A stretch of DNA of 64,000 nt from Eledone cirrhosa (GCA_964016885.1 OZ024742.1:347882001-347946000), one strand, 5' to 3'. Shown: positions 12,893 through 58,140, numbered from the stretch's first letter. Notes: generated by a model not told the origin, from the sequence alone. A program made the numbers and translations.

Positions 12893-13009
12893 AGGTCTGA
12901 TGACATGGTGTGTTGGCTTACAGTGTACTTTCGGTTTTTGATAATATTTGTGTATTATTCAAGTAGCGAGGTATAGGTAACTCATACACTATAGAAACAA
13001 TTGTTACCT
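12893..13009 (+). ncRNA. Atypical type I hammerhead motif in PLE pseudo-LTR (C10.1-A11.1, about 90-nt stem II domain)
   Basis: AGGT-CTGATGA-C-ATGGTGTGT...ATACACTAT-A-GAAA-CAATTG-TT-ACCT. Confidence 0.62.
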
Positions 13010-13216
13010 AATAAATTCTATATACCCGCATTTCCATTTCGTAAATTTTTTCTCCATATTTTCTCCGGATTTTAAAACACACTTTATTATACGTTGAGCA
13101 ATCTCTGACGTCAGTTGACTCCATCCAATGCAACTACTTAGTAACATTGGAATACAAATTATCTAATTCTTCACACTCCTTTACAGTCGAGCAACCTATC
13201 AACCCGCGTCTTTGAA

Positions 13217-15499
13217 ATGGAAAAACATCATTGTGGTATGTCCTTAAAAAACATACCCATCCAGGGTAAAAAGGATTACATTCTTGGTATGATACAAAGG
13301 ACCAACGAATTTATTCGGCGGATTAGATGGAAGGCCTTCCACTTCGATCGGAAAAGGATTACACAAACTTCGGACACCAACAACGAGAAGTTTAGTTTCA
13401 AATCCTACAAAAACCCACCCTCTAACCCTCTTTTGGATTCTTTCGAACAGGACTTAATGAAAATGATAACCGGAATCAAATTTACAAACGGAAGGAAAAA
13501 CGAACTGCAACGAGATATTAAAACTCTACTCAACAACCTAAGGAATACCAAAGGAATTATCATAAAGGCAGACAAAACTTCGAATCTATACACCCTGGAT
13601 GTAGAAACATATAACAATTTTATACGTAAGGAATTACATAGGAAATACAAAAAAACAAACGCAACTACACTAACCAACATTAATAACGCAGCATGTGATA
13701 TTGTTAGGAAATTGAAAATTGACGACAGAACGGTACCCCTATCCCCAGCTACACCGACTTTTAATCTGAAGGACCATAAGGATAACTTCGATACTAACCC
13801 TAAAATTAGATTAATATGTCCTTCAAAGTCCGATATAGGTAAGATTAGTAAGTACATATTAGATCGTATTATCCCCCAAGTTAAGGCTAAGGTAGATATT
13901 AAATTATGGGGTAATACTCATCAGGCAATAAGATGGTTCAATAACATTAGGGACAAAAACAAATCTTCTTTTATTCAATTCGATATAGATGAATACTATT
14001 CCTCTATTTCACCCGAAACCCTGCATAAGGCCCTCTCTTTCGCTAAGACTAACTCGGACCTCACAAACGAGGAAATTAATATTATACTTGAAGCTAGACG
14101 CACAGTAGTGCACTTTGAAAATAGTTATTGGGTCCGCAGGGATAGACCCTCGGAATTCGACATTACGATGGGTTCTAATGATTCGGCGGAGGTCACGGAT
14201 TTGGTTGGGATCTATATAGCCCATAGACTCCAGAGCGAATTTACGGACCTCCACGGCGGAATATACCGCGACGATACACTTCTATTAGTCAAGAATATGA
14301 ACAAACAAAACCTAGAAAGGCGACGTAAAAACATTAGGAAACTTTTCTTAGAACTAGGGCTTAATATTACCTTTGAACACAATCTTAAGGTGGTCAACTT
14401 CTTGGCTGTTACCTTCAACCTTAATAACGGTAATATAGAGCCATTTCACAAACTTAATGAAAATCTTAAGTACGTTAATGTAAAATCGAACCATCCTCAT
14501 TCCATTATTAAATCTATCCCTAAAAATATATCCATAAGGATCTCCCGACTGTCGTCTAATTTGCAGACCTTCAACGAGCATGCTGAATATTATAATGACG
14601 CACTTAGAAAAGCTGGTTACTGCGAGAAAATTGAATATCTAGACGATAACCACATAAGTACTATGAATAAAACACATCTAAGTCGAACTAGTATTGCACC
14701 ACACACACACATCAATAGGCATACTAACAGGTGCAAACCAGCAAATAGAGTCAGACGTAGAGAGTACATATGGTATAACCCCGTGTACAATTCTTCTATT
14801 AGCACTAAGATTATCTCACAATTCTATACACTAATCAATAAACACTTTACAACTTCACATAAATACTATAAAATCTTTAACTCGCGCACCATTAGACTAT
14901 CATACTCCACTGCACCTAACATAGAACAACTAATTAGAAAACTCAACTCAGCAATACTGAATAAGTACATCCCTAATGACTCAGCGCACCAGCATAGCAA
15001 CATGCAACGCACTAACACGCAACCACAACCCCACCAAACTATCCAGGATTCTACTGCAAAACATAAAAATAGTTGTAACTGCACCAAACCAGGTACGTGC
15101 CCACTGAATAACCAGTGCCTAGCACGCAATATTGTCTACCGGTGTACAATAAATTCCGGGACCAACAAATGGTATTACGTCGGATGTACCGCAACTTCTT
15201 TCAAGGCTCGCCTATACCAACATCGATCTTCGATCAGGCACGGGAAAATGCGCTCCGTAACAACCCTCGCCGATAAAGCCTGGCAGCTTCGGAGGAACAA
15301 TCAAGCGTTCTCCCTTGATTGGCAAATTATTGCAGCTGCGCCTGCATATCAGCAAAATCATCGATTCTGCAAGTTATGCAATTTAGAGATATACTGCATT
15401 TTAACGTCGGTAAACAAACTTTTGAACAGCAAAATTGAACGTTCTCTATACTGTAACCATCGTTTGAAAACGACTTTTTCTTTTTTTAAATGCATATAA
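13217..15499 (+). CDS. Penelope-like element polyprotein, reverse transcriptase + GIY-YIG endonuclease, 760 aa, uninterrupted
   Basis: KADKT, FDIDEYY, ITMGS, GIYRDD (RT); IVYRC...YVGCT..SFKARLYQH, CKLCNLE, LLN (GIY-YIG). Confidence 0.93.
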   Translation: MEKHHCGMSLKNIPIQGKKDYILGMIQRTNEFIRRIRWKAFHFDRKRITQTSDTNNEKFSFKSYKNPPSNPLLDSFEQDLMKMITGIKFTNGRKNELQRDIKTLLNNLRNTKGIIIKADKTSNLYTLDVETYNNFIRKELHRKYKKTNATTLTNINNAACDIVRKLKIDDRTVPLSPATPTFNLKDHKDNFDTNPKIRLICPSKSDIGKISKYILDRIIPQVKAKVDIKLWGNTHQAIRWFNNIRDKNKSSFIQFDIDEYYSSISPETLHKALSFAKTNSDLTNEEINIILEARRTVVHFENSYWVRRDRPSEFDITMGSNDSAEVTDLVGIYIAHRLQSEFTDLHGGIYRDDTLLLVKNMNKQNLERRRKNIRKLFLELGLNITFEHNLKVVNFLAVTFNLNNGNIEPFHKLNENLKYVNVKSNHPHSIIKSIPKNISIRISRLSSNLQTFNEHAEYYNDALRKAGYCEKIEYLDDNHISTMNKTHLSRTSIAPHTHINRHTNRCKPANRVRRREYIWYNPVYNSSISTKIISQFYTLINKHFTTSHKYYKIFNSRTIRLSYSTAPNIEQLIRKLNSAILNKYIPNDSAHQHSNMQRTNTQPQPHQTIQDSTAKHKNSCNCTKPGTCPLNNQCLARNIVYRCTINSGTNKWYYVGCTATSFKARLYQHRSSIRHGKMRSVTTLADKAWQLRRNNQAFSLDWQIIAAAPAYQQNHRFCKLCNLEIYCILTSVNKLLNSKIERSLYCNHRLKTTFSFFKCI

Positions 15500-15909
15500 T
15501 GTTACCTTTTTACACCAACGTTTGCAAATTTCTGTCTTATATGTTTATACACTAGATATGGCTTTCTATAATAATAGTACTAAACACTGTTTTTCTGGAC
15601 CCCTTTAGAAATAACCTGCTACTATAATAGCCCTAATAACTTGTCTGTGACATTGTACCACTTTGACCCCTCTAACTAAATTTTGTCCGAACAACACCAC
15701 TAGAAGTATCTACTTCCCAGCCAACCTTAGCACGCCTCATTAAGCTAACTGCTGCCAAAACATTCTCTCTTCACAATCTCTACTAGTCTGACAGTCTTAA
15801 ACCCTAAGACTCCCTCCACCTTACTCACTTCCCTCTTCCCCTTCTCTTCCTACCTCCTTCTTTATCTGTTATCTAGTGTATAAAATATTTTCATATCATT
15901 CTAATACAA

Positions 15910-16026
15910 AGGTCTGATGACATGGTGTGTTGGCTTACAGTGTACTTTCGGTTTTTGATAATATTTGTGTATTATTCAAGTAGCGAGGTATAGGTAACTC
16001 ATACACTATAGAAACAATTGTTACCT
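15910..16026 (+). ncRNA. Atypical hammerhead motif in the 3' pseudo-LTR
   Basis: Same sequence as 12893-13009. Confidence 0.62.
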
Positions 16027-56095: not shown

Positions 56096-56644
56096 TCGTA
56101 TATATATATAATTAAAAGGTGTATGTGGGTTAGAAGCGAAGTCAATGTTCAGAAATATTTTACCAATGTACGTAAGATTGGCCGGTATAGTGTCTCACAC
56201 AAAATAGTGTGGTTTCTTTTCACGCGTGTGTATATGCATATGGTATATATCTGTATATAAATCTGTGTGTATATTGTTGTTTATATGTTTTGTGGAGTAC
56301 TTACTGCGATCCCTAAGGGATGTAGCGATTTTTTTTTTTTCCCTTTTCCCCGTCCATGTCCACACGTGGTTTGTTGGCGAAAATCAAGTAAAAAAAATTG
56401 CAATGATGACGATATATATATATATATATATATATATATATATATATATATATATGTAGATAAATCTACCAAAATATACGGTAGTGTCCAATCCGTATGA
56501 AGAACTCAATGTAGTCCGAATATCATGAAAAGAGATGTATTCAAAAATATTTTTTCTATGAAAAGTACAGGAAAACAGAGTCAAGATAAATTAATAAAAA
56601 TAATGAATAAAAACAAAGAAACAGTTCCTTATATTAAAAAATTC

Positions 56645-56782
56645 ATCATTTTACAATCGTTTCTAGGATATATATATATGTTTGTGTTGGTATGTATATC
56701 ATATAGATCTATGTAAAATTTTTACAAACTATCAGAGGGAATATGCATACCTACACATATATATGCTGTCTTCAGAAATAAT
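56645..56782 (-). ncRNA. Atypical hammerhead (C10.1-A11.1), inverted copy
   Basis: Minus strand ATTATTT-CTGAAGA-C-AGCATATATATG...CATATATATATATCCT-A-GAAA-CGATTG-TA-AAATGAT. Confidence 0.65.
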
Positions 56783-58006
56783 GATATTTGTTTATTGAAA
56801 AAAACCAACAAGGATTTAATATAATAGGTCTGTTTGGGAACAGGTTTTGAATTGACCAATAGAAAGGTAGTAAAGGTCAAGATGGTAAAATAGTAGTAAT
56901 AGAACTTTAATTTAGGGGTAGAGGAAGGTAGATTTCAGTTTTGGATGGAAAGAGTATGATGAATGAAAGATTATTAAATAAGCGACAGGAATTAATTATA
57001 TCGTGTAATCATAAACTGAGAAAAACATTTAAATATTATAAACCTAATTAATATACACTTTAGAAATTATTATAATAACCCTTTTTTTAAATTAGGTAAC
57101 CTATAATTAATATTCTACTACTAATGAACTACATAATTTTATTTCCCTTTTACAACTATCTTTTCCTAAAATTTATACCAATAAGTATACATATAAACTA
57201 TTTTAATTTCAGGTTATGATTCTATATTCCTTGTAATCTATATATATTTGTTATTTCTCACTAATAAATTTACCCCCCCCCCCCCAATAATAATAATTTT
57301 TTTTTTTATTTTCCCTTCGTTTTTAACAGCACTCTTCAATTACATCTAACTCTTATTTATCATATCTATATGCATTAATATAATTTTATCAATATAATTA
57401 TACCTATCAATTTAATTAATTTATTTTCTTTTTATAGATGTAAATTCCCTATATTTTAAATAAGTTTGATATTTTTCACTAACACCTTTATCGTAAAATT
57501 TTAGTCTCCTTAGATATTTACATTAGCATTATTCTTTTATAACAGCAATTTTCGTGTACCTTTTACCGACCTGACCTATTTTCATCCCTAAAATAATCTT
57601 TTCATTCAAAACTGAAATCTGCCTTCTTCTACCCCTAAATTAAAGTTCTATTACTACTATTTTACCATTTGAACCAGTTACTACCTTTCTATTGGTCAAT
57701 TCAAAACCTGTTCCCAAACAGACCTATTATATTAAATCTTTGTTGGATTTTTCAATAAACAAATATAATTATTTCTGAAGACAGCATATGACCTATTTTC
57801 ATCCCTAAAATAATCTTTCATTCATCATACTCTTTCCATCCAAAACTGAAATCTACCTTCCTCTACCCCTAAATTAAAGTAAGTTCTATTACTACTATTT
57901 TACCATCTTCACCTTTACTACCTTTCTATTGGTCAATTCAAAACCTGTTCCTAAACAGACCTATTATATTAAATCCTTGTTGGTTTTTTTTCAATAAACA
58001 AATATC

Positions 58007-58140
58007 ATTATTTCTGAAGACAGCATATATATGTGTAGGTATGTATATTCCCTCTGATAGTTTGTACAAATTTTACATAGATCTATATGATATACATACC
58101 AACACACACATATATATCCGAGAAACGATTGTAAAATGAT
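58007..58140 (+). ncRNA. Atypical hammerhead (C10.1-A11.1, about 100-nt stem II domain)
   Basis: ATTATTT-CTGAAGA-C...A-GAAA-CGATTG-TA-AAATGAT. Confidence 0.63.

Follow-up and report, generated by a model that had tools for sequence, protein, structure and literature searches.

Predicted long-armed type I hammerheads with a variable first stem II pair in Penelope-like elements and a tandem repeat of Eledone cirrhosa

We focus here on a window of 64,000 nt from Eledone cirrhosa (GCA_964016885.1 OZ024742.1:347882001-347946000), with positions counted from its first letter. It contains an intact Hydra-type Penelope-like ORF, a non-coding tandem array and three families of predicted hammerheads, together with a further family absent from the list of the initial annotation. 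The features are as follows.

9609..12483, no single strand: inverted and partial tandem family 1 copies adjoining (TA)n (inverted terminal repeat 9609-10308; inverted 3' ORF part 10494-11465; direct 3' ORF part 11403-12482)
9767..9883, minus strand: family 1 hammerhead in an inverted, 5'-truncated copy, with one mismatch near the stem II base
12893..13009, plus strand: family 1 hammerhead, upstream terminal repeat (C3 12897, C10.1 12904, A11.1 12993; 90-nt stem II domain; 8-nt palindromic stem III; predicted cut after U13005)
13145..15499, plus strand: Hydra-type Penelope-like ORF, intact, 784 aa stop to stop, first ATG 13217
15910..16026, plus strand: family 1 hammerhead, downstream terminal repeat, identical to the 12893 copy and 3017 bp further (predicted cut after U16022)
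20524..21748, plus strand: family 2 tandem array between (TA)n tracts, 523-bp unit, two whole units and a tail of ~175 bp
20576..20658, plus strand: family 2 hammerhead, copy 1 (C10.1 20589, A11.1 20638; final predicted-brace pair broken)
21091..21124, plus strand: predicted family 2 brace, copy 2, GAGAA 21091-21095 (5' of stem I) with UUCUC 21120-21124
21099..21181, plus strand: family 2 hammerhead, copy 2 (C10.1 21112, A11.1 21161; 10-nt palindromic stem III; predicted cut after U21175)
21614-21618 with 21643-21647, plus strand: the same predicted brace, copy 3
21622..21704, plus strand: family 2 hammerhead, copy 3 (C10.1 21635, A11.1 21684)
core at 27841, minus strand: inverted twin of the next hammerhead
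28093..28205, plus strand: further-family hammerhead (U-A at 10.1/11.1, 49-nt stem II)
56645..56782, minus strand: family 3 hammerhead, inverted copy (C10.1 56768, A11.1 56664; 105-nt stem II domain)
58007..58140, plus strand: family 3 hammerhead, within part of a terminal repeat from a second Hydra-type element (C10.1 58021, A11.1 58121; stem II domain of 101 nt; pair 10.2 broken)

Read from the window sequence, all eight motifs of families 1-3 follow one order, stem I, CUGAnGA, C, a helix, A, GAAA, a palindrome, UH and stem I', and the eight motifs, their layout and the constancy of their core and C..A pair are as the initial annotation described them. The stem II domain measures 90 nt in family 1, 50 nt in family 2 and 101 and 105 nt in family 3. 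With CUGAnGA, GAAA and UH in order and stem I open, the motifs are, by core order and helices, type I hammerheads with predicted cleavage. Two parts of the earlier description need adjusting. The stem III of family 3, given as a near-palindrome, is one in the window, but most of the other copies compared have a perfect palindrome (28 versus 4); and "unrelated" is too strong a word for families 1 and 3, because their RT regions are 49% identical.

The ORF at 13145..15499 carries RWK, DKT and YRDD motifs, a CxCX5C linker, a GIY-YIG-like YYVG, CxxC and CxH, the list of Hydra protein motifs being taken from section 11 of PMC8557442; a Pfam search of the ORFs gave no match above cut-off. RWK and DKT are present in family 1 (for family 3 the reading covers the C-terminal part), the linker and the C-terminal GIY-YIG with CxxC and CxH are found in family 1 and, at locus L121, in family 3, and both families are inserted in (TA)n, as in the Hydra clade. 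These features assign families 1 and 3 to Hydra-type Penelope-like elements (PLEs), with the predicted hammerheads sited in the terminal repeats. The proposed association with the Hydra clade thus holds for these two families, by motifs and terminal repeats, but not for family 2, which has no Hydra ORF of its own in the loci examined. In an EN tree of 12 local rows, family 1 groups with long-arm families having U·G and A·A, not with family 3 (support 89/93, not starred); the tree is used only for this grouping, because the ENs at L146 and L243 were paired with the ribozyme of a neighbouring insertion and L395 was mis-measured. In families 1 and 3 the 90-105-nt arm forms an irregular hairpin that is conserved and common to related Hydra-type families; it may serve as a protein-binding or docking domain.

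Family 2 is of a different kind. Each non-coding unit has one type I hammerhead, as in non-LTR retrozymes, but the unit length of 520-570 bp in the loci compared exceeds that of the retrozyme monomer (about 170-400 nt), and no ORF lies inside the unit in 60 loci. Candidate autonomous partners were rejected: at L125, (TA)n intervenes between family 2 and the adjoining Hydra ORF, whose family has its own U·U ribozyme, and L244 and L245 are nested insertions. In a single case, at L261, family 2 is fused to a truncated EN. Family 2 could be mobilised by a (TA)n-targeting Penelope-like protein.

The window motifs are not chance occurrences. The family-2-type pattern has 10,358 matches in the genome against 1 for the reversed control, and the family-1/3-type pattern 6,144 against 37, while a structural scan of 464 kb, with a filter that missed family 3, returned 23 hammerheads, 11 of them in the window, versus 0, 0 and 0 in three shuffles. 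Thousands of copies retain an intact core and unbroken stems. Five patterns together give about 36,000 genome matches, with little overlap expected between patterns, and predicted long-armed hammerheads are present in tens of thousands of mobile-element copies in this genome.

Standard descriptors were said to miss such motifs, and this is so, but the cause is length, not the C·A pair. Rfam reports no hammerhead family in the window at E up to 1, nor over family 2 at E up to 10. The published descriptor (Cervera and de la Peña 2014, PMC4209133), as given there, takes a stem II of 3-7 bp with a loop 2 of 3-10 nt, which the domains of 50-105 nt exceed; since it already tolerates an extra base on both sides, C·A is not the reason for the misses. 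Because about 36,000 matches escape both Rfam and this descriptor, hammerheads in animal genomes are probably undercounted.

Comparison of copies shows that the helices covary, as the initial annotation had proposed checking, for family 2 stem II and for family 3 stems I and II. In 22 rows of family 2, pairing of stem II reaches 99%, two-sided changes are seen in 2 of its pairs, and pair 10.3 occurs in four Watson-Crick forms; stems I and II of family 3 show compensatory change, and family 1 varies too little for such a comparison. The shuffle controls ignore the relatedness of copies. The stem II domain folds with z-scores of -4.6 in family 1, -4.1 and -2.7 in family 3, and a weak -1.3 in family 2. 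One could read such folds as slow or inactive relics whose helices are kept for another job, such as RT binding or setting the start of reverse transcription, and the poor in vitro cleavage of PLE hammerheads would fit, as would one published element for which insertion in vitro does not need cleavage and no reads end at the cut site, and the ability of the family 3 core strand to fold alternatively onto stem III. Against this, catalytic positions, cleavage triplet and palindromic stem III are all kept in many lineages while helices turn over, and we regard the relic reading as quite improbable; conserved type I hammerheads remain our preferred reading.

A Watson-Crick pair at 10.1-11.1 is usual in type I hammerheads, with known exceptions. 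It is found in 0 of 22 rows of family 2, and the states seen among the motifs are G-C, A-U, U-A, G·U, U·G, U·U, U·C, A·C, A·G, A·A, G·G and C·A. If there were a distinct subtype, as the initial annotation proposed, C10.1·A11.1 would be a specific non-canonical pair (e.g. a protonated wobble) needed by it and coupled to a long stem II. Persistence of the pair speaks for this: at least seven lineages of family 2 whose stem II sequences have changed retain C·A, it is present in 15 of 16 rows of the family-3 lineages, and it recurs in short-stem families and in a Chara element. For the short stems, weight is given to the recurring families visible among the matches and none to the total, because the controls of that pattern (518) outnumber its matches (293). 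Yet the two traits are uncoupled. A pattern search of the genome found 12,678 motifs without C10.1 yet with a stem II of 72-102 nt; a family whose RT region is 72% identical to that of family 1 combines A·A with a stem II of 91 nt; within family 2 a lineage with A·A has spread, accounting for a large part of the non-C matches listed (100 of 508); and the state flips repeatedly along the CCATGG-family tree. Nor is C·A a mark of the Hydra clade. Most published Hydra hammerheads, in the rows available, combine short stems with U·U, and the published C·A belongs to the Chara element; in this genome, the separate Hydra family of the ORF beside L125 shows U·U, its stem II measuring 11 nt. A required C·A pair is accordingly improbable, and a single subtype of C·A with giant stem II is not borne out; the first stem II pair is a tolerated mismatch differing by lineage, of which C·A is one state among many. 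A11.1 may matter in family 2, where all lineages seen retain it (44 non-A versus about 10,400).

A second feature is a predicted pseudoknot brace. In family 2, and in the CCG and CCATGG families with a stem II of similar length (~50 nt), the strand immediately 5' of stem I finds its complement in an internal loop of stem II, the UUCUC of family 2 being the 5' strand of that loop, and about seven compensatory changes keep this complementarity across the three families. In these families four or more Watson-Crick pairs can join the stem II loop to the stem I region, with covariation among them. The hammerhead at 28093..28205 has a predicted brace of the same kind as family 2, CUGAGUU with AACUCAG.

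First, in family 2 (22 rows) the brace is 96% paired with 1 pair changing on both sides. Copies with GAGAA have UUCU in 26 of 28 cases and a G·U pair in 2; copies with GAAAA have a UUUU loop in 12 of 12, a set picked by a search for that very change, while among the 100 matches listed, counted by eye, about 67 of 83 GAAAA rows carry UUUU and about 16 of 83 are uncompensated. UUCUC occurs in 0 of the 100 listed members of a second GAAAA subfamily of 452 copies. Taken by itself, family 2 thus offers one covarying pair in one or two lineages, with a chance of about 0.03-0.06 (from 23 diagnostic of 399 columns). Second, in 30 anchored copies of the CCATGG family (34 examined) one brace pair is U-A in 14 and C-G in 16, and along the tree the next pair passes from U-A to A-U to G-C, while the second brace pair is mismatched in 8 of 30. 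Third, in 20 rows of the CCG family the brace is 85% paired with 3 pairs changing on both sides; a large subfamily has an A·G mismatch within it, and 8 of 20 rows are unpaired at one column. Finally, duplex energies are -4.3, -7.1 and -6.2 kcal/mol within the own family versus -2.8, -2.3 and -2.1 kcal/mol across families. Families 1 and 3 show no compensatory change in support of a brace: an apical-loop brace was rejected there for want of compensation, and a proximal one in family 1 because it overlaps helix II and changes on both sides to a mismatch in a sister subfamily.

The complementarity might instead be a switch or an accident, belonging to another conformer (e.g. a circular monomer, blocking cutting) or reflecting purine/pyrimidine composition. 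Both strands are of low complexity in family 2 and CCG, cross-family strand pairs reach -3 kcal/mol in 31-40% of cases, and the best flank pairing in family 1 overlaps helix II itself. But the complementarity occupies the same position in three families between whose ribozyme regions blastn found no homology, the two strands change together, and the pairing does not disrupt helix II, a trait shared with braces that are known to accelerate cleavage, so that we consider a switch or accident rather unlikely. The family 2 complementarity is likely a predicted pseudoknot brace of a known kind, newly drawn from an internal loop.

Comparison with known systems places these features. The minimal type I hammerheads of PLEs (PMC4209133) share, as described there, the place in terminal repeats, the CUGAnGA/GAAA/UH core, a short stem I, a palindromic stem III and a predicted dimer. 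Their consensus has one extra base (after A9), then G10.1-C11.1, a 7-8-bp stem II and a short loop; the window motifs lack that arrangement and have a mismatch and a 50-105-nt domain. The text of that paper describes no brace, in contrast to the one predicted here in family 2. The Hydra-clade and PLE-X elements of Craig et al. (2021, PMC8557442) share the Hydra protein motifs, the (TA)n targets and a non-paired 10.1/11.1. Natural U·U and C·A are already in print in its supplement, with U·U in most Hydra rows and C·A in PLE-X1_cBra, and a long loop II occurs in two spike-moss PLE-X elements; but the Hydra hammerheads given there all have short stems II, with no 75-105-nt arm and no brace, and the parts at hand do not discuss the mismatch. 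No 10.1/11.1 data were found in the available part of the deep-mutagenesis paper PMC9901934.

Non-LTR retrozymes, as described in part by Cervera and de la Peña (2020, PMC7229834) and Li et al. (bioRxiv 10.64898/2026.07.22.740005), resemble family 2 as a non-coding tandem with one type I hammerhead per unit; family 2 differs in its longer unit, Penelope-like tail, 5' inversions and long stem II with a predicted Watson-Crick brace. In the retrozyme literature consulted, the axolotl HHR_Amex2 has U·U at the stem II base and cleaves, 22% in 1 h. Pseudoknot-braced hammerheads (Perreault et al. 2011, PMC3088659) share Watson-Crick pairing of stem II with stem I regions; the text of that study predicts a brace for about 40% of its representatives, type I examples and the human C10 ribozyme among them, and reports a natural U10.1·U11.1. 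Compared by text, the present case differs in that stem II contributes a single strand from an internal loop, beneath a further hairpin, and in that the setting is animal mobile repeats. The PK hammerhead (Zhan et al. 2024, PMC11300833) shares the core and a pseudoknot, but there, by its description, the pseudoknot replaces helix II, which here is present and covarying.

The joint reading that we hold to be probable is one of type I hammerheads in the terminal repeats of Hydra-type PLEs and in family 2, likely cleaving as dimers through the palindromic stem III, with a tolerated 10.1/11.1 mismatch and a brace in family 2. Tandem copies would be transcribed through, RNA dimers would form by stem III, and cleavage after H17 would release unit-length RNA. 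As in minimal PLE hammerheads, stem III is suited to a dimer, with a self-duplex of -6.4 and -9.0 kcal/mol and no hairpin as a monomer. In family 2 the long stem II would brace the fold as its internal loop pairs with the strand 5' of stem I, and a tertiary contact or the element's protein may compensate for the lost G10.1-C11.1 pair. PLE hammerheads have been described as dimers of low activity with poor cleavage in vitro (PMC4209133), and one PLE hammerhead needs its protein; pseudoknot braces are, in the literature consulted, needed for cleavage speed. A bolder and more doubtful proposal, put forward tentatively, is of an undescribed extended hammerhead common in animal mobile DNA, in which an internal-loop brace that arose in several families makes dimers fast and frees 10.1-11.1, and the conserved tandem A·G loop of the Hydra arm docks the reverse transcriptase.

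Penelope-type hammerheads have been described as minimal and slow. Natural versions with a predicted brace, whose lineages vary at 10.1/11.1, would allow one to ask directly whether a near-invariant core pair is relaxed by tertiary contacts, and which role cleavage has in Penelope-like elements. What is new here is the predicted internal-loop brace in three families with a stem II of ~50 nt, the underlying chemistry being already known; relative to Perreault et al. 2011 this may be new by text comparison, the drawings of figure 2B aside, and the PLE variants of Lünse et al. 2017 may resemble it. As a minor observation, the purine strand of the brace could alternatively pair weakly with a U-rich strand 3' of stem I.

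A structural scan of the window recovers the hammerheads of all three families where the initial annotation had placed them: three copies of family 1 (terminal repeats of a Hydra-type Penelope-like element) with a stem II domain of 90 nt, three of family 2 (a non-coding tandem repeat) with 50 nt, and two of family 3 (a second Hydra-type element) with 101 and 105 nt. In all eight, C faces A at positions 10.1/11.1, where stem II begins. The motifs are not chance matches, because genome matches far exceed the reversed and shuffled controls: the family-2-type pattern has 10,358 matches in the 3.0-Gb host genome versus 1 for the reversed control, the family-1/3-type pattern has 6,144 versus 37, and a 464-kb scan, covering the window and 400 kb chosen irrespective of content, finds 23 hammerheads versus 0, 0 and 0 in three shuffles. 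The claim that standard searches miss them is also borne out. An Rfam scan of the window and of family 2 reports no hammerhead, and the descriptor of Cervera and de la Peña, while tolerant of one added base on either side, accepts at most 7 bp in stem II and 10 nt in the loop; arm length thus explains why the motifs are missed.

The same annotation proposed a subtype defined by C·A and a giant stem II, with C·A constant while the helices differ. Inside family 2, this constancy stands: across 22 rows, stem II is 99% paired and pair 10.3 takes four Watson-Crick forms, 10.1/11.1 is paired in 0/22, and C·A is kept while the helix above changes sequence. A11.1 is replaced in just 44 matches, all scattered single copies, and C10.1 in 508, of which the 100 listed comprise C-to-T changes at CpG and an entire A·A lineage. 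Across families, it does not stand. The CCG-type families (4,632 matches versus 2 in control) and the CCATGG family (2,491 versus 1), both with a stem II of ~50 nt, have G-C, A-U, U-A, G·U, U·U, A·C, A·G or A·A at 10.1/11.1, and on the CCATGG tree the state flips repeatedly; the identity of this pair is free across families. Furthermore, stems II of 72–102 nt without C10.1 give 12,678 matches versus 181 controls. Several come after Hydra-type ORFs; one of these ORFs shares 72% identity with family 1 across the RT region and goes with an A·A long-arm ribozyme. C·A is found with 4–7-bp stems II too. The two traits are therefore uncoupled and the proposed subtype dissolves, leaving a large group of long-armed hammerheads that the descriptor does not see and in which the first pair of stem II is free. 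Non-canonical pairs here have precedents: in File S2 of the supplement of Craig et al. most Hydra hammerheads carry U·U, and PLE-X1_cBra carries C·A (PMC8557442), a natural U·U was reported by Perreault et al. (PMC3088659), and an axolotl U·U ribozyme was 22% cleaved in one hour.

A further feature is a putative brace, a pseudoknot between stem II and the flank of stem I. Family 2 has an internal loop above the 6-bp helix of stem II, and the 5′ strand of this loop, UUCUC, could pair with GAGAA directly 5′ of stem I; in one lineage both strands are altered, to GAAAA with UUUUC. GAAAA copies with full flanks are compensated in 12/12 cases, and GAGAA copies have UUCU in 26/28 and a G·U in 2. Counted by eye among 100 listed, about 67/83 GAAAA rows are compensated and about 16 are not, and a second GAAAA subfamily of 452 copies has UUCUC in 0/100 listed. 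Since the probability of a single coincidence of this kind is about 0.03–0.06 (23 diagnostic differences, 399 columns), family 2 by itself is suggestive. The CCG and CCATGG families, whose ribozyme regions give no blastn match to that of family 2, show the same flank/loop pairing at the same place. In 30 anchored CCATGG copies (4/34 could not be anchored), one pair is U-A in 14/30 and C-G in 16/30, and the adjacent pair passes through U-A, A-U and G-C in turn, with a mismatch in 8/30. The CCG brace is 85% paired; three pairs change on both sides and one column is unpaired in 8/20 rows. Duplex energies in the three families are −4.3, −7.1 and −6.2 kcal/mol with their own flank versus −2.8, −2.3 and −2.1 with those of the others, and by our reading of trees and tables there are about seven compensatory events, the shuffle statistics ignoring relatedness. 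A fourth family places GGGC opposite GCCC at the same site, just above helix II:

L380:1479-1638 and L403:1479-1640, U·U family, 95-nt stem II forming a three-way junction, flank GGGC matching GCCC

Bracing of stem I against stem II by a pseudoknot is common and required for speed (PMC3088659). Such braces are known from the hammerheads of Perreault et al.; the case predicted here, in family 2 and similar families, is an internal-loop version in animal repeats, of which no published account was found in the text of the literature searched. What remains new in this variant of a known ribozyme is the long-armed, descriptor-invisible set together with this predicted brace.

In families 1 and 3 the arm folds into a long, irregular hairpin (z −4.6 and −4.1), and no compensatory change supporting a brace was found in either. 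Among family 3 lineages, pair 10.2 and the helix after it show compensatory changes; a C·C at 10.4 and the apical module stay constant. Our guess is that the long arm may bind the element's own protein, because the hammerhead of an anole Penelope-like element is assisted by protein (PMC11167929). By eye, many 75–105-nt arms (L380-L409; window 12930-12975) have a common internal loop, a UAG/CAG 3′ strand against A(G/A/U)U with G-C closure, possibly a protein or docking site. One family 3 lineage (L367:75-242, L370:74-238, L207:4050-4217) has in stem II a GAA bulge followed by G·A and A·G pairs, broken in some copies, which we take to resemble the kink-turn consensus. In rare family 3 copies (G000 C1:268222625, C1:333179714), the entire long arm is deleted between (TA) runs and a short stem II is left. 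AAUAAA or AAUACA lies ≤24 nt 3′ of the cut site in 23/41 groups of long-arm families, a count from an AT-rich background with no control.

The analysis shows the motif with its context and abundance, covariation in the helices and in the predicted brace, and the freedom of the first pair, and by analogy with known Penelope-like hammerheads we infer self-cleavage. The palindromic stem III forms a self-duplex of −6.4 or −9.0 kcal/mol and no hairpin alone; two copies of a tandem transcript could pair through it, and cleavage after H17, the predicted position, would release RNA of unit length that could be circularised or reverse-transcribed. A brace or bound protein may hold stems I and II parallel, which would make a G10.1-C11.1 pair dispensable.

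The association with the Hydra clade, as first annotated, is upheld for families 1 and 3 by their Hydra-type ORFs and is lost for family 2, whose unit lacks an ORF in all 60 loci examined. Family 1 encloses the following frame:

13145-15499 (+), intact ORF of 784 aa between the terminal repeats, with RWK, DKT, YRDD, CxCX5C, a GIY-YIG-like motif, CxxC and CxH

RWK, DKT, CxCX5C and GIY-YIG with CxxC and CxH are marks given for the clade (PMC8557442). The locus has the tandem and inverted layout usual for such elements, and 18/42 listed family 1 matches show 100% identity across 181 bp, so the family has spread recently. A second Hydra-type ORF, flanked by family 3, lies at L121 and is 49% identical to that of family 1 over 330 aa of RT. 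Family 2 is a 520–570-bp tandem unit plus a short tail, with (TA)n on its borders, and the Hydra ORF adjoining one copy belongs to a family carrying a separate short-stem U·U ribozyme. Family 2 thus appears to behave like a non-LTR retrozyme, although the units described for these, in the accounts consulted, are shorter. In one case (L261:875-1760), a truncated Hydra-type endonuclease joins an A·A family 2 unit directly, without (TA)n; the fusion could be a template switch, hinting at the enzyme that mobilises family 2.

Other features of the window are:

18159-20120 (+), with 20318-20363, broken Penelope-like element of another type, C-X4-C-X2-C linker and YIG motif
22197 (+), 22084 (−), 25758 (−), 17722 (+), 33468 (+), 33675 (−) and 9469 (+), further hammerheads, short or medium stem II, with U·U, U·C, U-A or G·U at 10.1/11.1
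27478-28480, near-perfect inverted repeat, 499 bp with a 5-nt spacer, one CCATGG-family hammerhead per arm
10318-10516, 16837-16933, 17174-17564 and 48788-48977, ~200-bp dispersed repeat, one copy inside the inverted family 1 element
50890-51426 (−) and 49314-49826 (−), exon-like frames, MPKKFQGENSK... start

The broken element, presumably Neptune-like, has a textbook minimal hammerhead (an extra G, then G10.1-C11.1) directly upstream of family 2, and several of the further hammerheads form inverted pairs. At 9370-9444, Rfam matches mir-279 below threshold on each strand; the site is an inverted repeat beside a hammerhead, likely a retroelement inversion. The dispersed repeat looks SINE-like by eye. 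The exon-like frames probably belong to a host gene, and part of the window therefore likely lies within introns.
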